A stretch of 64,000 nt of DNA from Escherichia phage RB14, in sequence record NC_012638.1. One strand, written 5' to 3'. This document shows positions 17,024-27,581 of this stretch, one piece after another. The first letter of the stretch is position 1, and every line of letters begins with the position of its first letter. The translations under genes and the position numbers were made by a program. The notes below the pieces were generated by a model, which was not told the DNA's origin, did no database searches, and saw nothing but the letters and a program-made list of their open reading frames with translations.

Positions 17024-17077
17024 TCCTCATGTTATGTCAGTAAGACTACTATAACACAACATGAGGGACTTGTAAAC
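17024..17077 (-). promoter_or_regulatory. T4-type early promoter nested in an inverted repeat
   Basis: On - strand GTTTAC, 18 nt, TATAGT; 9-bp arms at 17025-17033 and 17058-17066, downstream arm contains the SD. Confidence 0.65.
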
Positions 17078-19134
17078 TACATTTTGAACTTTTTAGACAT
17101 TCCGTTGATGTTAACCAAAGAAGCTAAGATTTGAGAAACTTCGTTTTCCTCTTCTTTTGATTCTTCTACAAGGAATTGATTAAATCCAGCCATTGGACGA
17201 ACTTCACCAGTTTCCATTAGATGGTCGCCATCATATACTGATTCTTCTAATTGTTCAGAAGGAGGAACGATTGTACCTTCGATTAGATACTTGTTATAAG
17301 CAGTTTCTTTCATAAAGTAAGTACTTACTTTATTAATCTTCAGTAAAATTCCACGTGGTAGAATAACTTCAGCTTCTGATGGAAATCCTGATAAATGACC
17401 CGGAACGATAACTTTAACTCGTTCAGCTCCTTTAATTACCATACCCACGCTAGTTTCAGCATCTTCATTAGCATATGTAGAATGACTACCCATATGCATC
17501 AAATCTTCTGCATCAACAGAACCTTCTCCTTCGCCAGAAAATACTGCACCGGAATCATCTAGAGCCATATAGTTTTTACCATGCTCACCGAAGATATTTG
17601 GTTTAAGTGATGTCGATACGAAGTTCTTGAAATAGAACATTTTATTTTCAATGTTATGACGCAAAGTTTTAAAAGTAACTTCTTGTCCACGGTAAAGTGT
17701 AGTTCCTGGAGGAAGAACTGAACCTTTAGCAAACGCAGAATCCATAGTCTCGATGTGCTTAATAGCGCGCTCCATGTATTCTTCACGTGTAGAATCAGGT
17801 TTACCTAAAAGGAATGAGTTCATTTCAACATACGAATCTGCGCAATAATCTTCAATTACATCAGACTCAGCCTGAGTCAATCCTTTTGGAGTTACTTCAG
17901 TGCTTGCATATTCATACGCCTGAGCAGCGGATTCATCAATTAATTTATAAATTCCATTCATTACAAATTGAATAATAGCTGTCTTTTCATCTGGTGTAGC
18001 TTTAGAACCTTTAACTAAATCATTGATAATTTTCTTAATAACATCAAAACTATTAGAAATATTAATATCAGCAAGATCGCTTAAAATTTTATCAGTTTTG
18101 TAATTAAAGAAGTCTTTATTCTTTAAATATTCCTGGGAACCTTGATATGATGTATCGCTCTGCAACTTGATAGATGGATCGCGTAAACGTGCATGGGCTA
18201 ATGCAATATGATTTCGGAAACTTTCTAGTTCATAATCGTTAGATTTAAAACGAGAAGCACTTCTCATACCGCCGATAGCTCCTTTGCCGAAGTTTGAACC
18301 AATCTGAATAACGCCAGAGTTCATTGGTCCTTCTGCTTTATATACCGGAACTTTAGATTCAAACTCTTGATATTTCTTAGCAGCGAAGCTATCACCCTGA
18401 AGTGAAGCATCAACAGTAGAATATTGAGCTTGTGCTGCTAATCGACGACTAATTTTAGTTTTCTGAATAACAGCTTGATCCGTACGCTTATCATTTTCTA
18501 AAGCAATAGAAGCAGCAACTGCGACAGCTTTAGGAACAGCATTACCTGTTTTAACGTCTACATAAACATCACCAACCTTTGATTCAACTTTTGTGAATAA
18601 CTCAGTTGAAATAGGAGGTACACCTGGAATGTCTTCTAAATTGGCATTTTTACGGTAAACCATAATATATGCATATTTCTTATCATAGTCCCAGATTTCC
18701 TTTAAAAGAACATATCGACCTGCTCCTTTAGTACGTACTAAACGGTCAGCAATAACTTGCATTTGACGAGCAGCGCCATTTGTTTTACTTTTTAGTACGC
18801 GGAATAGGCATGCATCAATTTTATACTGTTTCATTGTTTGAAGAGCAGTATCAAAAACCGCATTAATGACACCAATTGGATTTCCACCCAAGTTTTTAAG
18901 CTTAACTAACGATAATTTCTCATTAACACCTATCATTACGATATGCATCATTTTGTCGCCTGGCTTAACGTTTTTATTCGTATCACCGCCAGAGGTGTAT
19001 GTACAAAATCGAAATCCAGGAAGAACGCTTTCTTCACCGGCTTGAATAGCAAAAATTTGAGGTATTTTATGCTTAGGATTTAAGTTAACAACCGGCGCCG
19101 AAGCGCCGTCAAATAATTCTGTAATAAGTTCCAT
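17077..19134 (-). CDS. Alt-family mono-ADP-ribosyltransferase paralog
   Basis: 685-aa ORF; shares N- and C-terminal blocks with the adjacent 698-aa ORF; Arg (LYRGQ), STS (FVSTSL) and ExE (SEAEVILPRG) motifs. Confidence 0.85.
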   Translation of the reverse strand: MELITELFDGASAPVVNLNPKHKIPQIFAIQAGEESVLPGFRFCTYTSGGDTNKNVKPGDKMMHIVMIGVNEKLSLVKLKNLGGNPIGVINAVFDTALQTMKQYKIDACLFRVLKSKTNGAARQMQVIADRLVRTKGAGRYVLLKEIWDYDKKYAYIMVYRKNANLEDIPGVPPISTELFTKVESKVGDVYVDVKTGNAVPKAVAVAASIALENDKRTDQAVIQKTKISRRLAAQAQYSTVDASLQGDSFAAKKYQEFESKVPVYKAEGPMNSGVIQIGSNFGKGAIGGMRSASRFKSNDYELESFRNHIALAHARLRDPSIKLQSDTSYQGSQEYLKNKDFFNYKTDKILSDLADINISNSFDVIKKIINDLVKGSKATPDEKTAIIQFVMNGIYKLIDESAAQAYEYASTEVTPKGLTQAESDVIEDYCADSYVEMNSFLLGKPDSTREEYMERAIKHIETMDSAFAKGSVLPPGTTLYRGQEVTFKTLRHNIENKMFYFKNFVSTSLKPNIFGEHGKNYMALDDSGAVFSGEGEGSVDAEDLMHMGSHSTYANEDAETSVGMVIKGAERVKVIVPGHLSGFPSEAEVILPRGILLKINKVSTYFMKETAYNKYLIEGTIVPPSEQLEESVYDGDHLMETGEVRPMAGFNQFLVEESKEEENEVSQILASLVNINGMSKKFKM

Positions 19135-19137
19135 GAT

Positions 19138-21234
19138 TTATCCTTGAACGAACTTGTAAGGCATGTTTGTAATATCTATGCAAGACGCAATAATTCCAAG
19201 AGATGATTCTACTTTCTGTTTAACGTTTGATGAAACAAATGATGCAAAGTCAACTCTGTCTTCTATTTCAGTATCACCTGTCATTGCAACTACTTCACCG
19301 GTTTCCATTAAATGGTCTCCGTCATAGATTACCGATTCGGTGAGCTCTTCCGTGGTCATAACTTCAGCTTGAATGAGTTTTGTATTATTAGATGTTGTTC
19401 CGTCATTATTAGAAGCATCAGTTATTTTATTAACTTTGACCATCAATCCACGCGGTAGAATAACTTCAGCTTCTGTTGCTATTCCGAGACTTCCTGGATA
19501 TACAACATTAACTTTATGAGCTCCATCAATTGCCCATCCTATTTGAACTTTAACGTATTCAGGATTTTCTTTATACGCTCTTATTTCGTTTGGATTAATA
19601 GTTATTCCTTCTTCATTTTTATCAACTGTTAATTCATTGCGAGCTTCTGGTTCTAAAAGACCAATACCAGCATGTGTGATTCCAAAACGTCCAAAAATGA
19701 TAGGAGTTAAAGAAGTAGATACAAAATTTCTGAAGTAGAACACTTTATTTTTAACTAACGCTTCATATATAGGAGCAGTCATACTTTGAGCACGATAAAC
19801 TGTAATGCCTTCTGGTATACGGTCACCATTTTCAAAAGCTGAATCTAAGTTATTTATAGCAGATTCAATTTCTTTTTCACTCATTACATCATATCGTTCT
19901 GGATTGTAACGACCTAAAAGAAGATTATTGATGTCAGTATATCCTGAACCGCAATATTCTCTAATGCCACGCTTTTGTGATGGAGTATATTTAGAACCAT
20001 CGCGGGCAATAGTAATATCAATCATTGGACCAGCACCAATTCCAGAAAAACTGTAAATCATTCGTTTGAGGAATTTAGTTTTTGCTGCGTTCCAGGAATT
20101 TTTAGTTATTTCTTCCCAGACTTCATCTGGTTGTCCTTTACGATTTTTATTATGATTAGCAAGCCATTTATCTTTATAATCTTCAAAGAATTGATTTACA
20201 GCTGCTGCGTATTTCTCTAAACATTTTATTGAAGTAGTTGGTTCATTTTTAATTGCATTAAAAATTACTTCTTTAATTTTTTCTGAAACTTCACCGACTT
20301 GACTCATTGGAAAGAATTTATAATCATAGTGAAGTTCATCTGCCGTTCCTTCAGCAATAATTTTTGCTGCCTTTGTTTTAGAAGCTAATGAATTAATTCC
20401 AATTTTCATTTCTTCTGCTTCGGGAATTAAAGGTGCAGTAGCTGGTTTATTAAAATTAGCTGCTGTAGATTCATACTTCTGGAATAATTCACTTTCAAAT
20501 CTAGAAGATTCCAATGACTGACTTTGTGCAATTGCTCTACGGGAAATTTTAACTTTAACGATTACGGCTTGGTCAGAACGTTTATCATTTTCTTGTGCAA
20601 TAGATGCAGCAATTGCCTCATTTTTGGTTACTTGAGCTCCAGTATCTTTATTGATATAAACATCACCGACCTTCGATTCAACTTTAGTAAAGAGCTCGGT
20701 GCTAATTTCTGGAACTCCTGGAATGTCTTCTAGTGATACATTTTTACGATGTATAAGAATATATGCATACTTTTTATCGTAATCCCAGAGTTCCTTAAGA
20801 AGGACGTATCTGCCACCTGAACGACTGCGGATGAGTCTATCAGCAATAAGTTGAATTTGTCGAGCTTGACCGGCGGTTTTAGACTTAAGAATACGAAGCA
20901 TGCAGGCATCAATTTTATATTGACGCATTGTTTGCATTGCAACAGTAAAAACTGAATTGATATAATTAATCGGGCTTGGACCAAGACCTTTTAATTTAGC
21001 AATTGAACCTTTAGCAGTTAATGTAAAAGGAACAATATGCATCATTTTATCGCCCATCTTTAAATCACGATTAGTATCACCTCCAGATGTATAGGTACAT
21101 AAACGAAAGCCTGGTTGTTCAATTGCATCATCAACATGAACTGAAAAAATTTGTGGTATTTTCTTCTTTGGATTTAAGTTTGTAATCGGAAGAGTAGTAT
21201 CTTCGTCAAATAATTCTGTAATGAGTTCCATCAT
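19138..21234 (-). CDS. alt: Alt ADP-ribosyltransferase
   Basis: 698-aa ORF (MMELITELFD...; second ATG 21231 has better SD spacing); YRAQ / FVSTSL / TEAEVILPRG motifs; adjacent to ligase. Confidence 0.85.
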   Translation of the reverse strand: MMELITELFDEDTTLPITNLNPKKKIPQIFSVHVDDAIEQPGFRLCTYTSGGDTNRDLKMGDKMMHIVPFTLTAKGSIAKLKGLGPSPINYINSVFTVAMQTMRQYKIDACMLRILKSKTAGQARQIQLIADRLIRSRSGGRYVLLKELWDYDKKYAYILIHRKNVSLEDIPGVPEISTELFTKVESKVGDVYINKDTGAQVTKNEAIAASIAQENDKRSDQAVIVKVKISRRAIAQSQSLESSRFESELFQKYESTAANFNKPATAPLIPEAEEMKIGINSLASKTKAAKIIAEGTADELHYDYKFFPMSQVGEVSEKIKEVIFNAIKNEPTTSIKCLEKYAAAVNQFFEDYKDKWLANHNKNRKGQPDEVWEEITKNSWNAAKTKFLKRMIYSFSGIGAGPMIDITIARDGSKYTPSQKRGIREYCGSGYTDINNLLLGRYNPERYDVMSEKEIESAINNLDSAFENGDRIPEGITVYRAQSMTAPIYEALVKNKVFYFRNFVSTSLTPIIFGRFGITHAGIGLLEPEARNELTVDKNEEGITINPNEIRAYKENPEYVKVQIGWAIDGAHKVNVVYPGSLGIATEAEVILPRGLMVKVNKITDASNNDGTTSNNTKLIQAEVMTTEELTESVIYDGDHLMETGEVVAMTGDTEIEDRVDFASFVSSNVKQKVESSLGIIASCIDITNMPYKFVQG

Positions 21235-21283: not shown

Positions 21284-21472
21284 TTAATAATCTATTGGTA
21301 ATAGAGTACGATATATTTCAAACTTTGGACCTTTTTCATAAGCATCAAAAGTTTCTGTGAATTTATTATAAGCATATGCATCTATAAATTCAATCATGAT
21401 TTGCGATACAGAAGTAGAAACATCTCCACCTTCTTTTTGAGCCACGACAATTGTTTCTAAGTAAGCTTTCAT
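21284..21472 (-). CDS. Hypothetical 62-aa protein
   Basis: ATG overlaps ligase stop (ATGA). Confidence 0.6.
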   Translation of the reverse strand: MKAYLETIVVAQKEGGDVSTSVSQIMIEFIDAYAYNKFTETFDAYEKGPKFEIYRTLLPIDY

Positions 21473-22932
21473 AAACCAGTTACCTCATGAAAATCGCCAA
21501 ATACATCTTCGAACGTATTAGCTTTAGTTTTATCTTCACGTAAACGAATCGCAATTGGAAGAAATAATTTAACGTAATCGGTGCGGCCATCAGATTTTAA
21601 CCAACCGTTGCATTCGCACTCTAGAATTTTTCCAATATAATAATTTTGGTTTTCCATAATGCGAGTACGGTCAAGTTCATGCGATTTTATACCAGCTTTA
21701 TCTTTTAAGCCTGAACCAGCATTTACTTTAATTTTTCCACACTCTGACTCAAGAATAAATCCACCCGCTTTAGTAGGGTCTTTACGGTGAGGATAAATTC
21801 CTACAATTTTTAAATCAACATCAATTACTTCTTTAAATTTATAAAGATTTTTTGAACGAGCATTTTCCCATAATCCATCGATATTTTTGAGAATAATACC
21901 TTCAAGACCTTGGTCAATATACTTTTTGTAAATTACCTTAGCTTCATCTAGGTTATTTACTACTTGGTTTTCAATTAAAATTACTTTATCATAGCCTGAT
22001 GTCATTTGTTCTAGTTTAGAAAAACGTACATCATATTTTAAACGAAACGCTGGAAGACCATATATTTCTACTAATGGAACATAGTCCCAGACCTGAAACT
22101 TCATGCATTGTGCTTCTTTTTCAGAAATGGTTCCCTTTAAAGATTTATTAGCGATTCCATTAGAAGTAGTACGTGATTCAGCTACTTCGGCGAATTCTTT
22201 AGCTTTACTAATTTCAGGATAAGCATCAAAAAGAAAATCTAGGCCTTCTGGTTCCTTTTCAACTTGCTCATGGTATACCAATTCGCCATCAATTAACACA
22301 CCTTCTGGATGAATCTGGCGAGCTTCTGCAGTCATTTTGATTAACTCTTCCTTGAGAAGATCTAATCCTAGATATTCATTACCAGCTCGTGATAAAAGAC
22401 GAACATCATCTAATTCATCACCTCTGACTTCAGCAAAGCACCGAGCTCCATCAGCTTTTAACTGCGCAAAAGCTGGAAACTTAATATTCTTACTAATGCC
22501 TTTTTCATCATAAGAACTTGCCAGCATTTGAGGTTGTTCAGGAATTAAACCTGGCCAAACTTTATTTGCAATAGATACTGAAGCACCGCATTCAAGGTCT
22601 CGCATCATCACCCGACGCAAAACTTCAACATCATCTTTTTTACCGTCAGCAATATATCCAGTTAATTCCTCAATTGCCGCATTTCCGGTCAATTTCCGAG
22701 TAGCTAACGTGAATTCAATGAAGTCAAGCATATCGGTAAGAGTCAACATTCCAAAACTCTGGGTAGCAATACCAGGTTTAGGCCATTTCTTGATATAATA
22801 CTGTAACCCACGAGAATAAGTCAGACGATATACTCGTTTAAGCAATTCATTATCTTTATTCTTTTCAAGAATTGCTTGCTTCTGCTTAGTTGAACCAATA
22901 GATGCTATTTCGTTCAGAATTTTAAGAATCAT
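21469..22932 (-). CDS. 30: ATP-dependent DNA ligase gp30
   Basis: 487-aa ORF; adenylation motif KADGAR; recognised as T4 DNA ligase. Confidence 0.95.
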   Translation of the reverse strand: MILKILNEIASIGSTKQKQAILEKNKDNELLKRVYRLTYSRGLQYYIKKWPKPGIATQSFGMLTLTDMLDFIEFTLATRKLTGNAAIEELTGYIADGKKDDVEVLRRVMMRDLECGASVSIANKVWPGLIPEQPQMLASSYDEKGISKNIKFPAFAQLKADGARCFAEVRGDELDDVRLLSRAGNEYLGLDLLKEELIKMTAEARQIHPEGVLIDGELVYHEQVEKEPEGLDFLFDAYPEISKAKEFAEVAESRTTSNGIANKSLKGTISEKEAQCMKFQVWDYVPLVEIYGLPAFRLKYDVRFSKLEQMTSGYDKVILIENQVVNNLDEAKVIYKKYIDQGLEGIILKNIDGLWENARSKNLYKFKEVIDVDLKIVGIYPHRKDPTKAGGFILESECGKIKVNAGSGLKDKAGIKSHELDRTRIMENQNYYIGKILECECNGWLKSDGRTDYVKLFLPIAIRLREDKTKANTFEDVFGDFHEVTGL

Positions 22933-23198
22933 TGTTCATCCTTTAGAGTTTGGTTTACAGCTCTATTATAAATCAATTCATCATTAAGCTCAGTCAAAGA
23001 CCTGTGGTACGTGGTTCTAACTTTATTTCCTTGCATCCAGTGCTTGACGTAAATGAAACCTTGCTCTACGCATTTTTTAAAAATTCGTTCGTCTTTTTGA
23101 GCTCGGAACTCTGGATTGCATCTAAAAAATTGATTTACGTGACCGTAATCACGTGTAGTATTACCTTCATTTTCATAAATAGTGTGAACGACAAACAT
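22929..23198 (-). CDS. Hypothetical protein (position of T4 30.1)
   Basis: 89-aa ORF. Confidence 0.7.
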   Translation of the reverse strand: MFVVHTIYENEGNTTRDYGHVNQFFRCNPEFRAQKDERIFKKCVEQGFIYVKHWMQGNKVRTTYHRSLTELNDELIYNRAVNQTLKDEQ

Positions 23199-24034
23199 TA
23201 GAATGCTCCTTGGAAAATATTATCACCACCAGTAGGTCTATTATACAAATACTCTATGCCACCAGGTTTAATATAGTTCCATGTCTGAAACGGATGTGTC
23301 TGATATGGATGATATAGATTATAAGGATTAAATCCAGGAGTTCTCCAGGTAGTGTTCCAAGGAAAAGAATCATTTTTAATCATCTTTTCAATTACATCTT
23401 TTATAGCTTTTTCACTATCAAAACTTTCTTTATTTTCCTTCGATGGAAAAAGCTTATTCTCTACATCATTCCATGTATAAACTCGCTGCGCAGTTTTTGG
23501 AATACTGTCACGCTCCCCTCGAGCCATCCAATAAACAGGAACATTTAATATTTCACTCGCGTGATCGCAGTGGTGAGCGAGATCGTCAATATAACAAATT
23601 ACGTTATATTTCTCTTTTGCCTTTTTGAACAACTCTTCTTTTGAAGAATCATGACCACACATCAATACTTCTGAGAAGGCACCAGGAAAAAGAGCATTCA
23701 AATTAAATTGACGATTTAGCAGAGCGTCAATAGAATCACCCAATGCTGTAACAGCTACAAAATTATAATCTTCTTTTAATTTGTTAATTACACACAGGGC
23801 ATCTTTATACGGAGACAAGTAACGAATAAAATCTGAACGATTGTATTTTTCAATTAACTTGACACCAAGTTCTTCATCGCAATTAAAGAGCTTACCAGGA
23901 GAAATAAATTTTTCGTCCTGAATCATTTTTAAAATATGTTCCAACGGAAGATTATATTTTTGGGCAAAATAAGGAAGACCTGATTGCCAGCTTAAACATA
24001 CACCATCAATATCAGTCAAAATAGTAGGCTTCAT
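23198..24034 (-). CDS. HAD-superfamily phosphatase-like protein (position of T4 30.2)
   Basis: 278-aa ORF; N-terminal DxDG motif (ILTDIDGV). Confidence 0.7.
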   Translation of the reverse strand: MKPTILTDIDGVCLSWQSGLPYFAQKYNLPLEHILKMIQDEKFISPGKLFNCDEELGVKLIEKYNRSDFIRYLSPYKDALCVINKLKEDYNFVAVTALGDSIDALLNRQFNLNALFPGAFSEVLMCGHDSSKEELFKKAKEKYNVICYIDDLAHHCDHASEILNVPVYWMARGERDSIPKTAQRVYTWNDVENKLFPSKENKESFDSEKAIKDVIEKMIKNDSFPWNTTWRTPGFNPYNLYHPYQTHPFQTWNYIKPGGIEYLYNRPTGGDNIFQGAF

Positions 24035-24489
24035 AGAGAGTCTCTTAATAGGTTTAACACATCAATAAATTCAGCTTCGGTTAATATTGTATCATCTTTT
24101 GTTAGACTACTAGCCATGCTGTGCTTCAAAACTTTTCCTTTCGAGGCTTGTAATGCATCACGAAAGCCCTTGTTTTGAATCGCTGCCTCAAAATACGCAT
24201 TTGTGTATAATTCTTTCCACGCTGGAGAGTATCTTGAAAACGGAACTCCGAGCCAGAAGAGGGTCCCACGGTCCTGAGCTCTAGCATAAGACCTTCCAGC
24301 TTGTTGGGCGGCAAGCCCGGATAACCCAAATACACGACGTTGCTGTTCAACATTTTTCACCTTACATCCTTGGAGAAATCCTTCAAGACCTCCAAATTGG
24401 ATACCATCCATAACAAAAGGCCATTGGGCGAAATTACTTAATGCACACGATGGCCATCTAAAATTGCTTCTAATCTCTAACTCAGACAT
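24031..24489 (-). CDS. YbiA/NADAR (DUF1768)-like protein (position of T4 30.3)
   Basis: Track start is TTG 24495; ATG at 24489; segment ALSNFAQWPFVMDGIQF resembles the YbiA core FSNFAAWPIKVDGKTW. Confidence 0.65.
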   Translation of the reverse strand: MSELEIRSNFRWPSCALSNFAQWPFVMDGIQFGGLEGFLQGCKVKNVEQQRRVFGLSGLAAQQAGRSYARAQDRGTLFWLGVPFSRYSPAWKELYTNAYFEAAIQNKGFRDALQASKGKVLKHSMASSLTKDDTILTEAEFIDVLNLLRDSL

Positions 24490-24688
24490 TTTCAATACTT
24501 ATAATTTCAACATCAGCCCAATGACCATAGCAAGGAAGACGAAATTCAACTGGCCAGTTAGGGTCCTTTTCTAATATAATAGACTTAACTTGTGGTTCTT
24601 CATGTTCATCAGTATATGGATTTTTATCTGTTACTTTATATGTGACCTTAATGTACTGAATTCCAAAAATCTTATAAATTATATTCAT
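24482..24688 (-). CDS. Hypothetical 68-aa protein
   Basis: ATG start. Confidence 0.6.
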   Translation of the reverse strand: MNIIYKIFGIQYIKVTYKVTDKNPYTDEHEEPQVKSIILEKDPNWPVEFRLPCYGHWADVEIISIENV

Positions 24689-24882
24689 ACTAATTCCTTT
24701 AATCCGTAAATAGGAGATAATTCATCACCCATACGAAGGTCTTCATTTCCATCTACCCAGGAAACAATATAAGCCTCTTTTATTTGAACACCACTCCATT
24801 TAAATGGAGGTAGAACCTTAGAAATTAATCCAGGTATACCAACTCCCTTTAATTCAACAGTTTGACCTAAAAAGAATTTCAT
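24685..24882 (-). CDS. Hypothetical 65-aa protein
   Basis: ATG start. Confidence 0.6.
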   Translation of the reverse strand: MKFFLGQTVELKGVGIPGLISKVLPPFKWSGVQIKEAYIVSWVDGNEDLRMGDELSPIYGLKELV

Positions 24883-25169
24883 CAGAACCTCATCTGAAAG
24901 CCGTGTGATTTAACATTACCGCCGCCAATATCAGAAATATTAATTTCACGCGCAATTGAAGGGTCAATGTCAATTTCACGATTAAGTTTAGCGATAGCTA
25001 AAGTATCACGCCCATTTACTGTACGGAATTCTAAAGGACAAACCACATCAACATAATTTTTAATCGATTCACTGGTAGGTTGCAAATGAGCAGGAAGGTC
25101 TTTAGGCGCCTTAGAGAAAACAACTTCACAGAAATTTTTGCGGGTATCAAAATAAGTAGTCATAAACAT
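24882..25169 (-). CDS. Hypothetical 95-aa protein
   Basis: Track ORF begins at TTG 25220; SD-preceded ATG at 25169 (GAGG, 9 nt). Confidence 0.6.
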   Translation of the reverse strand: MFMTTYFDTRKNFCEVVFSKAPKDLPAHLQPTSESIKNYVDVVCPLEFRTVNGRDTLAIAKLNREIDIDPSIAREINISDIGGGNVKSHGFQMRF

Positions 25170-25186
25170 AGTATTTTCCTCAGTAA

Positions 25187-25211
25187 GGGGCCGAAGCCCC
25201 TTTTTTATTTT
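25187..25211 (+). terminator. Strong plus-strand hairpin plus T-tract inside a minus-strand gene block
   Basis: ggggc-cgaa-gcccc followed by ttttttatttt on + strand. Confidence 0.6.
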
Positions 25212-25575
25212 AAATATCAAATTCGTTAAGAACTACATCAAAGATTGCTTCAAGATGCTCAGGTTTAGCTCTATTACTCAGAATATGACGAATCCAAGTT
25301 TTAACCAGAAGCTTACGATTAACGCCATTCCAGCAAGGATGAGTCCCTAAATCACGTTGACGAAAATCATCATCTAATGCGATTTTAAAAGAAGAACCTT
25401 CTTTCGTGATTGAAACTGTAATACCGTTTTCAAATCGCATATAAACATAGTTAGGAGTCATATACTGTTCAATTTCGCATACTGAACCATTTTGATGTTT
25501 CCAAAGGCAGATAGTATCAATAGAACCTGCAATACCGTTAGAAACATATTTACGTTCAAAGTTGATGTAGTTCAT
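25210..25575 (-). CDS. Hypothetical 121-aa protein
   Basis: Track start is TTG 25587; ATG 25575 preceded by GGAG at 8 nt. Confidence 0.65.
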   Translation of the reverse strand: MNYINFERKYVSNGIAGSIDTICLWKHQNGSVCEIEQYMTPNYVYMRFENGITVSITKEGSSFKIALDDDFRQRDLGTHPCWNGVNRKLLVKTWIRHILSNRAKPEHLEAIFDVVLNEFDI

Positions 25576-25600
25576 TTTATTCTCCAAGATGTTTAATTGC

Positions 25601-25640
25601 GGTACAGGTATATAATATCATATCCTGTACCAAAGTAAAC
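25601..25640 (-). promoter_or_regulatory. T4-type early promoter with inverted repeat
   Basis: On - strand GTTTAC, 17 nt, TATTAT; arms ggtacagg (25601-25608) and cctgtacc (25624-25631). Confidence 0.6.
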
Positions 25641-25642
25641 AA

Positions 25643-25975
25643 TTATTTTACTACTTTCCAATGCTTCATATCAAGTTTACCAACTTTTTTCATCTTCTCA
25701 ATTAAGCGTTCGGCACGTTGGCGAGCTGTAACATAATACCATTCACCTAATTCATTTTGTTCAATTTTTCCAACGATTACTGTATTCAATTCATAAATCC
25801 AACCAGTAAAGAAATTATGAACTTGAATTGTAAAGGTGAAATCTGTTCCCATACCTTCTGTTGTTTCTACTTCAATAATATCACCTTCAACTGCCATTAA
25901 GAACCACATAGTTTCATCATATTTACCATTGAAGCATTTAGTTTTAACTGCAGCGTTCAGATTAATCGTTTTCAT
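25643..25975 (-). CDS. Hypothetical 110-aa protein
   Basis: ATG start. Confidence 0.65.
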   Translation of the reverse strand: MKTINLNAAVKTKCFNGKYDETMWFLMAVEGDIIEVETTEGMGTDFTFTIQVHNFFTGWIYELNTVIVGKIEQNELGEWYYVTARQRAERLIEKMKKVGKLDMKHWKVVK

Positions 25976-26048
25976 TTTATTCTCCTTTGTTTGTGTAAGA
26001 TAATACTATCACAAAGGAACCATACTGTAAACAACTTTGTGCAATCTT

Positions 26049-26081
26049 TGGAAAATAAAAAAGGACTCCCGAAGGAGTCCT
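26049..26081 (-). terminator. Intrinsic terminator (- strand)
   Basis: aggactcc-cgaa-ggagtcct hairpin followed on - strand by UUUUUAUUUU. Confidence 0.8.
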
Positions 26082-26085
26082 CAAC

Positions 26086-26262
26086 TTATGCTTTCTGCTT
26101 ACCAAAACGAGAAGCATCATCTCGAAGAACCGCACGTGCTCGGCGCATGATCTTCTCAACAGTTTGATTGATACGAGAGTTCGACCCACGCTTGTAACCA
26201 GCGCGTTTAGAATCACCAACTTTCTTTTCAACTGCTTTCTTTGCTTTAGCTTGTTTTGCCAT
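26086..26262 (-). CDS. Small Lys/Arg-rich protein (58 aa)
   Basis: MAKQAKAKKAVEKKV...; ATG at 26262 has an upstream GAG; the track extension to 26304 lacks an SD. Confidence 0.55.
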   Translation of the reverse strand: MAKQAKAKKAVEKKVGDSKRAGYKRGSNSRINQTVEKIMRRARAVLRDDASRFGKQKA

Positions 26263-26505
26263 TATAAATTCTCTTTTAAATGAAAATGCAGGACTTATTG
26301 GCATTGCCTGCGCAAGCCCTCAAGGGGAACATAGGTTTTGAATATTTACCGACAGGATAACCATAAACCCGTCATCATTCACATTCAAGAGGTACACCAT
26401 AAAACTGCCGGGGTCTTAAAACTATAATGATTCGCAAATCATTAATCAGACAGTTCGATGGCTCCTCGATTTTAGCTCACACTAAGGCAGTGAATCTCCA
26501 ATAAA

Positions 26506-26754
26506 TTACTTCAATGTTACCACAAAGTGACGAACTGCTTTTCGTGCAGCAGAAGCCAGAGGCTTGGCATATTTAAGTTCATCTTTTTCCTGAAGCTCAG
26601 CAGCTAATGCAGTTTGAGCAGGATTCAGATGTTTGAAATAACGCAGGATTTCAAGAGCTTCGGCTTCAACATCAATAGATGCGCCATAGTTTTCGTGACC
26701 ATTATTCCATGCGTTTCGTTGCAGTTCAAGAGCGTGTTGTAATTGTTTAATCAT
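26506..26754 (-). CDS. rIII: rIII lysis-inhibition accessory protein
   Basis: 82-aa ORF recognised as T4 rIII. Confidence 0.9.
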   Translation of the reverse strand: MIKQLQHALELQRNAWNNGHENYGASIDVEAEALEILRYFKHLNPAQTALAAELQEKDELKYAKPLASAARKAVRHFVVTLK

Positions 26755-26872
26755 TTAAAAATTCTCGTTAGAGATTAAAACTCGGTAGTCACGTTCTTCT
26801 GAATTTCATCTTCTTTCGACAGATCTCTCAGTTGTAGACTACCACATAGAATTGAAACTCAATTCATATTAT

Positions 26873-26880
26873 TATTTATA
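26873..26880 (-). promoter_or_regulatory. Late promoter (TATAAATA on - strand) upstream of rIII
   Basis: TATTTATA on + strand immediately after the gene 31 stop. Confidence 0.6.
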
Positions 26881-27216
26881 TCACTTATAAAGACACGGAA
26901 TAGCTTTATAGTGACAGGTAACGAATTTTTGCTTAATTTCTTTTGGCTGCTTAAGACCCAGAGCTACAAAAGGATGTGGAACGTTTCGAATTTGACCAAC
27001 TGGAAGAGAAGTCAAATCACCAACTTCACAGAAACCTTCAGGAACATCAGGACCAACAGAGTGAATTACACACAGTTCAGGAACTTCACCTTGAACACGT
27101 TTACCGATAATAAGTCCTGATTCTGTAACTTCTTCATCACCGGCTTGTGCAGGTTCAGAAACTAAAATAACATATTCACCGACAGCACGAATTGGTAGCT
27201 GTTGTACTTCAGACAT
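26881..27216 (-). CDS. 31: Co-chaperonin gp31 (GroES analogue)
   Basis: 111-aa ORF recognised as T4 gp31. Confidence 0.92.
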
Positions 27217-27272
27217 CGTTTTTCCTTTTTGTTAACAGATGAATTAATAATAACAAATAATTCTTAAAGCAT

Positions 27273-27581
27273 TTATTTACCAATAAATTGGAGTAAATGC
27301 TCAACTTTCATACCATTAACAGAAATCAATTTGTCAATAGAAAAACCTCGCCACTCGCCAAGCTCAACATCAAATACTGGAATCATATCAGTAGATTCTT
27401 TCCGAGCAGATTCAGTCAATTTACCAGTTTGCATGGTTGGCATAAAGTCAGCATCGCGAGTACCTTTCATAGTACGAATAGTACCATCAGACTTTTCAAA
27501 AACTACGTTTGAAATACCCATGGACAATTTAGTTTTCAAAATTTCACGAATTGCTACTTTCTGTTCAGTTGTCAGTTTCAT
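27273..27581 (-). CDS. Hypothetical protein (position of T4 31.1)
   Basis: 102-aa ORF. Confidence 0.7.
   Translation of the reverse strand: MKLTTEQKVAIREILKTKLSMGISNVVFEKSDGTIRTMKGTRDADFMPTMQTGKLTESARKESTDMIPVFDVELGEWRGFSIDKLISVNGMKVEHLLQFIGK

Follow-up and report, generated by a model that had tools for sequence, protein, structure and literature searches.

The minus-strand gene at positions 24031..24489 of the 64,000-nucleotide stretch of the Escherichia phage RB14 genome (NC_012638.1) that we analysed in full, hereafter referred to as the window, is adfN (gene 30.3) of a T4-like (Tequatrovirus, RB51-like) phage. The gene is already known and has been experimentally characterised; its product, 152 residues followed by a TGA stop, is a NADAR ADP-ribosylglycohydrolase of the phage clade, as judged from its reading frame, from Pfam and from its identity to the T4 protein. 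The orthology, fold, residue conservation, intact length and gene context described below are results of our own analysis. The only step that we infer is that the allele in the window behaves like that of T4, so that it would work by the mechanism established for T4 AdfN, a reading to which we assign a probability of roughly 95%. There is no new biology in this finding: the reason for a histidine at position 123 and the question of which T-even factor helps AdfN belong to the published system. Its main value lies in the right annotation, as most GenBank records list a proven anti-defence enzyme as a ‘hypothetical protein’, presumably because the single protein reaches neither the Pfam NADAR model nor PDB chains.

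Called mechanically, the open reading frame on the minus strand extends over 24031..24495 from a TTG codon, or begins at an ATG at 24489, the ATG version being 459 nt long. The TTG (24490..24495, minus strand) lies in frame two codons before the ATG and would make the mechanical frame 154 aa long. The ATG at 24489 is the likely start because it agrees with the T4 annotation, in which gene 30.3 has the same length and start, and because it overlaps the stop of gene 30.4. A preliminary description, made from the letters of the window, had placed the frame at the same coordinates with the same ATG start, and the peptide that it quoted is real. The encoded protein is identical to T4 gp30.3 (NP_049816) at 149 of 152 positions (98%), without a gap through L152, and is 100% identical to RB51 gp30.3. 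The three substitutions relative to T4 gp30.3 (V53I, M125I and S128G) leave E36, K43 and H123 untouched; residue 125 lies only two positions from H123, and HSM at 123-125 is natural and common within the 51-member family described below. With the Pfam model PF08010 (Phage_30_3, ‘Bacteriophage protein GP30.3’), whose curated gathering threshold is 36 bits, the protein scores 234.5 bits (E=4e-70), and the match takes in model positions 1-138, the full length of the model. The protein also matches phrog_652; no NCBIfam model was found for it. A region of 2.5 kb around the gene is 98% identical to RB51, RB68 and many further Tequatrovirus genomes, and gp30.3 itself is found in 1,509 phage records from many host genera.

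The Pfam NADAR model PF08719 was not matched by the window protein alone, even at E<=10, and a single-sequence phmmer search against PDB chains returned only a spurious match to an ATP pyrophosphatase, with an E-value of 0.5. Membership of the NADAR superfamily therefore rests on the comparison of profiles and structures. A protein-database search yielded 104 homologs, with identities down to 34%, all of which match PF08010; one of them matches PF08719 too, and several are called ‘YbiA (DUF1768 family)’ by JGI. The window protein was aligned with 50 of its homologs (51 sequences), and this family alignment formed the basis of both a profile and an AlphaFold2 model. When run against PDB chains, the family HMM retrieved a YbiA chain (2B3W) at E=0.004, and hhalign aligned the family profile to YbiA with a probability of 94.5% (E=8e-8) in local mode and 95.8% in global mode. 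Taken singly, 21 of the 51 family members do match PF08719, the best of them at E=1.5e-7. The AlphaFold2 model (pLDDT 93.4, pTM 0.89) has a predicted YbiA/NADAR fold, with a helical core and small beta-sheets at the flanks. In a Foldseek search of the PDB, the top three matches were YbiA (2B3W), the ADP-ribose complex of the Phytophthora nicotianae NADAR (PnNADAR, 8BAU) and the NADAR of G. lovleyi (8BAT), with probabilities of 0.99-1.00, and all remaining matches were noise (E>1). Thus, similarity to NADAR proteins is present at the level of both profile and structure, and the resemblance to YbiA from which the preliminary description had started is no product of chance, given the PF08010 match, the 104 homologs and the profile alignment.

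The peptide that had drawn attention to this gene, ALSNFAQWPFVMDGIQFGGLEGFLQGCK, corresponds to residues 16-43 of the window protein, and the YbiA peptide with which it had been compared, FSNFAAWPIKVDGKTWPTSEHYFQAQK, agrees exactly with residues 29-55 of E. coli YbiA (translation of MG1655 b0798). Both the HMM alignment and hhalign pair LEGFLQGCK with SEHYFQAQK of YbiA, so that LEGFLQG does stand in the place of SEHYFQA within a YbiA-like core, as proposed; the two motifs differ at five of seven positions (S to L, H to G, Y to F, F to L and A to G). The spacing of the E-x6-K residues is identical in the two proteins. Glu36 (codon GAA, 24382..24384, minus strand), the catalytic glutamate conserved in NADAR enzymes, aligns with E48 of YbiA and is invariant in 51 of 51 sequences, and Lys43 (codon AAG, 24361..24363, minus strand), which is catalytic or in contact with ADP-ribose, aligns with K55 and is at least 90% conserved in the family; the equivalent residues in the E. 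coli C7 NADAR are E88 and K95 in the literature. E36, G37, F38 and Q40 are all invariant among the 51 homologs, and the family consensus reads MEGFLQSLK. The residues that set the motif apart from that of YbiA are thus those fixed in the consensus of a diverged clade, and they point to purifying selection on this site and not to decay. To speak of an altered catalytic motif is therefore too strong: the catalytic Glu36 and Lys43 are kept, and it is only at non-catalytic positions that the motif differs.

The true peculiarity of the catalytic site in this clade, as the literature describes it, lies outside the quoted motif and is the invariant His123 (codon CAC, 24121..24123, minus strand), a hallmark of phage gp30.3-type NADARs that is present in all 51 sequences. 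In the model it directly follows the predicted strand E120-122, and Glu and Asp are absent at this point. According to the literature, phage gp30.3-type NADARs carry His here, YbiA-type proteins Glu (E125 in PnNADAR) and DarG1-type proteins Asp (D171). Sequence-only alignments give two placements for this residue: the local hhalign alignment ends at residue 122, and its ungapped extension puts H123 opposite E125 of YbiA, while global hhalign and MAFFT put H123 opposite H126, with E125 either unmatched or facing K122. The C-terminal helix (residues 138-152; 24034..24078, minus strand) is intact, is identical in sequence to that of T4, and appears in the model as a helix over residues 138-151 with pLDDT 94-98.

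The function of the T4 protein is known from direct experiments. Johannesman et al. (Nat Commun 2025, PMC11825919) used phage chimeras to map resistance to DarTG1 to gene 30.3, which they renamed adfN. Deletion of adfN makes T-even phages sensitive to DarTG1, showing that it is necessary, AdfN is also sufficient for resistance, and its ectopic expression rescues RB69 by ~5 logs (PMC11825919). In the same study AdfN did not bind DarT1, and the purified protein stripped ADP-ribose off DarT1-modified DNA; E36A and K43A impaired T4 AdfN, leaving only partial rescue, and E36A was inactive on ADP-ribosylated DNA. A frameshift in RB69 deletes the last 15 residues, and a T4 protein truncated in this way has reduced activity (PMC11825919), so RB69 is sensitive to DarTG1 because it has lost the C-terminal helix. 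A second study (Toxins 2024, PMC11125620) found that T4 gp30.3 hydrolyses guanine-ADPr in vitro and not thymidine-ADPr; in later papers the T4 NADAR is active on G-ADPr in RNA and is absent from the list of enzymes that reverse cytidine-ADPr. The reaction published for the T4 protein on DNA is the hydrolysis of guanine-N2-ADP-ribose. The T4 gp30.3 construct is given in Methods 4.2 of PMC11125620 as ‘residues 1-208’, compared with the 152 aa that are encoded, which may be a typographical error or reflect tag residues. A transposon screen in T4 found insertions in 30.3 to be lost specifically on DarTG1 hosts.

These experiments bear out the anti-DarT role that had been suggested for a phage NADAR, since they were carried out on a protein 98% identical to that of the window (PMC11825919, PMC11125620, transposon screen). 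The accompanying caution that the substitutions leave activity uncertain falls away, as the T4 protein is active and its three differences from the window protein avoid E36, K43 and H123. As a whole, the preliminary description had the function right; it had missed the named gene (30.3/adfN) and the reported His123 deviation, and its idea was not new.

The published work also sets a limit on the simplest account of how AdfN acts. In uninfected E. coli, T4 AdfN gives no rescue from DarT1 toxicity (PMC11825919, PMC11125620), and its rescue of non-T-even phages is weak, T5 and Bas25 being barely helped (PMC11825919). [quoted passage not shown] The picture of a free-standing antitoxin is thus incomplete, and a T-even factor or context is needed.

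For the window copy, the proposed role is accordingly that of an orphan antitoxin-like NADAR ADP-ribosylglycohydrolase of a T4-like phage. In hosts that carry DarTG1, the DarT1 toxin would ADP-ribosylate guanines in phage DNA and so block replication; AdfN would then cleave the N-glycosidic bond between guanine and ADP-ribose, freeing ADP-ribose and restoring the base, which would allow the phage to replicate. The residues used in catalysis would be Glu36 and Lys43, both in the conserved ME-G-F-L-Q-x-x-K motif, and His123, which is specific to the clade and lies in the last strand; full activity would require the C-terminal helix. We assign the same mechanism to this allele because its three substitutions avoid the functional residues and because HSM is common in the family. 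An intact adfN predicts resistance of the phage to DarTG1-carrying hosts, which would be useful when therapeutic T4-like phages are chosen or engineered.

The order of genes around adfN on the minus strand is that of T4: 30.7, 30.6, 30.5, 30.4, 30.3, 30.2, 30.1, 30, alt.1 and alt, after which this phage, unlike T4, has a second full-length alt paralog. Gene 30 encodes the ATP-dependent DNA ligase (Pfam PF01068). The start of 30.3 and the end of 30.4 share 8 nt (24482..24489, minus strand; …AATGTCTGA), and its TGA stop shares bases with the ATG of 30.2 in an ATGA (24031..24034, minus strand); both overlaps were read from the frame coordinates and the sequence and are the same in T4, and they suggest that 30.4, 30.3 and 30.2 are co-transcribed and translationally coupled. 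The preliminary description had placed the gene next to the ligase and the Alt genes, which is loosely true in that all are nearby and co-directional, but the ligase is two genes away and Alt four. No DarT-like gene was found among the genes flanking 30.3 (30.4 and 30.2), the nearest ADP-ribosyltransferases (ARTs) being the Alt paralogs. A scan of 22800-27300 for sigma-70 promoters and terminators gave 15 promoter-like sites, compared with 15.5 expected by chance, and at this level the scan is uninformative on expression. The only convincing signal in 22.8-27.3 kb is a strong terminator-like hairpin at 26061..26082 (minus strand), with a 9-bp stem (GAGGACTCC/GGAGTCCTT), a TTCG loop and a T-run, which lies just 3' of a 72-aa frame (26086..26304) in the position of gene 30.9.

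Three further features of this region were noted. Two full-length Alt-type ART paralogs stand in tandem on the minus strand, at 17077..19134 (685 aa) and 19138..21234 (698 aa), and are 42% identical to each other; the 698-aa copy matches PF03496, and the 685-aa copy is assigned from its 42% identity to the other. At the corresponding place T4 has a single alt and the duplication remnants alt.-1 and alt.-2. Between alt and the ligase, a 62-aa homolog of alt.1 (21284..21472, minus strand) overlaps the ligase stop and matches PF24647 (‘Phage blade protein’, E=7.5e-29). Lastly, the frame 30.3' (24126..24353, minus strand; 75 aa), which is annotated in T4 and matches Pfam DUF2883 at E=3e-49, lies inside adfN in the +1 frame. 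An open stretch of 76 codons in this frame is confined to T4-like copies; in seven distant homologs of 30.3 the stretch covers 37-66 codons, which lends no support to a conserved overlapping gene, and 30.3' is probably an annotation artefact.

Other readings of the gene have to be set against the proposed role. The core-motif substitutions might have turned the protein into a degenerate NADAR pseudoenzyme with another, non-catalytic role, as the five differences from YbiA among seven positions and the missing direct match to the Pfam NADAR model could be taken to mean. We consider this extremely unlikely, as the MEGFLQSLK consensus is fixed at the positions that differ, as all 51 diverse homologs keep E36, G37, F38 and Q40, and as the 98%-identical T4 protein is active both in vitro and in vivo and is impaired by E36A and K43A (PMC11825919, PMC11125620). 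It is also conceivable that DarT1-modified DNA is not the main substrate and that the enzyme acts chiefly on RNA-ADPr, on soluble ADPr-derived immune signals or, as for YbiA, on N-glycosides of the riboflavin pathway, in which case its action against DarTG1 would be a side activity or one facet of its role. The T4 NADAR does take guanosine-ADPr off RNA in vitro, more weakly than DarG1, and a gene found in ~1,500 phage genomes from many host genera may exceed the distribution of DarTG1. We nevertheless regard this as unlikely, given the direct genetics with DarTG1 (deletion, complementation, the chimera screen and the transposon screen); no phenotype has been reported for alternative substrates, and the published list of cytidine-ADPr-reversing enzymes does not include the T4 NADAR.

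A role turned inwards, in which AdfN erases the ADP-ribosylation carried out by the phage's own transferases (the nearby Alt paralogs, with ModA and ModB elsewhere), is most improbable and was rejected, as the chemistry of the linkage differs and the proximity reflects synteny. T4 Alt modifies arginine in proteins, and all assayed NADARs cleave nucleobase N-glycosidic linkages. It is true that 30.3 is followed on its own strand, at a distance of ~3-7 kb, by two Alt-type ART genes, that Morganella MP1 and Acinetobacter AbTZA1 also have Alt close to 30.3, and that, according to Iyer et al., NADARs and ARTs of T4-like phages are expressed together among the early genes. However, the four genes in between speak for shared T4-type synteny and not for a tight operon, and the proximity is lost in RB43, S16, Vibrio QD01 and ORM_20. 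Removal of DarT1-derived ADP-ribose from guanine thus remains the preferred reading for the window copy.

As to the T-even factor postulated for full AdfN activity, gene context led us to consider the neighbouring gene 30.2 (23198..24034, minus strand), which is otherwise given here as context only. It encodes a predicted HAD-like phosphatase of 278 aa (phrog_420, E=9e-93; weak PNK match) that is ‘hypothetical’ in most records. Its HAD motifs are intact (D8xD10 in the DIDGV motif I, T96, K132 or K142, and D150D151) and invariant in 5 diverged homologs, and the Tequatrovirus protein has an extra C-terminal extension of ~80 aa that is rich in Pro, Trp and Tyr. Pfam and NCBIfam gave only sub-threshold matches to thiamine pyrophosphokinase, there was no match to PDB sequences, and a single-sequence structure model was unusable (pLDDT 38). 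The context of 30.3 was compared in seven distant phages that bear a homolog: MP1, AbTZA1, RB43, QD01, kvi, S16 and ORM_20. Morganella MP1 and Acinetobacter AbTZA1 have a 30.2 homolog directly after the 30.3 homolog. In RB43 three frames, including one for a putative HNH homing endonuclease, come between the two, and in Vibrio QD01 the gene directly after the 30.3 homolog is of the HAD family but differs from 30.2, with BLASTP similarity to gp30.2 at motif I only. No 30.2-like neighbour of 30.3 was found in the RB49-like kvi, in S16 or in Ochrobactrum ORM_20, and BLASTP detected no similarity between gp30.2 and S16 gp73. The linkage of 30.2 and 30.3 is thereby kept in Tequatrovirus and in the Straboviridae genera Gualtarvirus, Pseudotevenvirus and Hadassahvirus, and gp30.2 and gp30.3 occur in 1,438 and 1,509 phage records, respectively, with a near-identical breakdown by genus.

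If the product of 30.2 were the factor that potentiates AdfN, 30.3-30.2-(30.1)-30 would form a small cassette for the de-ADP-ribosylation and repair of DNA. We think this a long shot. What speaks for it is contextual, namely the ATGA overlap, the adjacency kept across the four genera, the HAD gene that follows 30.3 in Vibrio QD01 and the near-identical genus distributions. Inherited T4 synteny would account for the linkage just as well, RB49-like and Ochrobactrum phages do not have the two genes side by side, and in its text the T4 transposon screen mentions no gene other than 30.3 for DarTG1.

Compared with known systems, the closest counterpart of the window protein is T4 AdfN, with which it shares flanking genes, overlaps, E36/K43/H123, an intact C-terminal helix and 98% identity over 152 aa; it differs by three substitutions, at no known functional residue, and is the same allele as RB51 gp30.3. 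The RB69 allele, by contrast, is frameshifted and has lost the C-terminal helix that the full-length window copy retains. DarG1 (E. coli C7; Geobacter/Trichlorobacter lovleyi, 8BAT) adjoins DarT1, which it neutralises in uninfected cells; it carries Asp (D171 in E. coli C7) in place of the His of the phage clade, as well as additional N-terminal elements that make a DNA-binding channel, whereas the phage protein is a bare core. Unlike DarG1, the phage protein, an orphan, comes without a toxin gene, and the T4 type fails against DarT1 toxicity without T-even infection; the window protein is therefore an orphan antitoxin-like enzyme and not a component of a toxin-antitoxin system. E. coli YbiA (2B3W) is 15-23% identical to the phage protein, has Glu125 in the last strand, and lies in a LexA-linked rhlE-ybiA-dinG-ybiB neighbourhood with a link to N-glycosidase activity on riboflavin intermediates and not to anti-defence. 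The NADAR of the oomycete Phytophthora nicotianae (8BAU, solved with ADP-ribose) has 189 aa and 18% identity, and again carries Glu125 instead of His. Among phage anti-DarT proteins, AdfN-Bas32 and AdfN-Bas60 remove guanine-ADPr as AdfN does, but belong to other NADAR branches and, unlike T4-type AdfN, need no phage-specific context. Two others work by different routes: AdfA (gp61.2) binds and blocks DarT1 instead of repairing DNA, and AdfM (tk.4) is a macrodomain protein directed against the thymidine-modifying DarT2.
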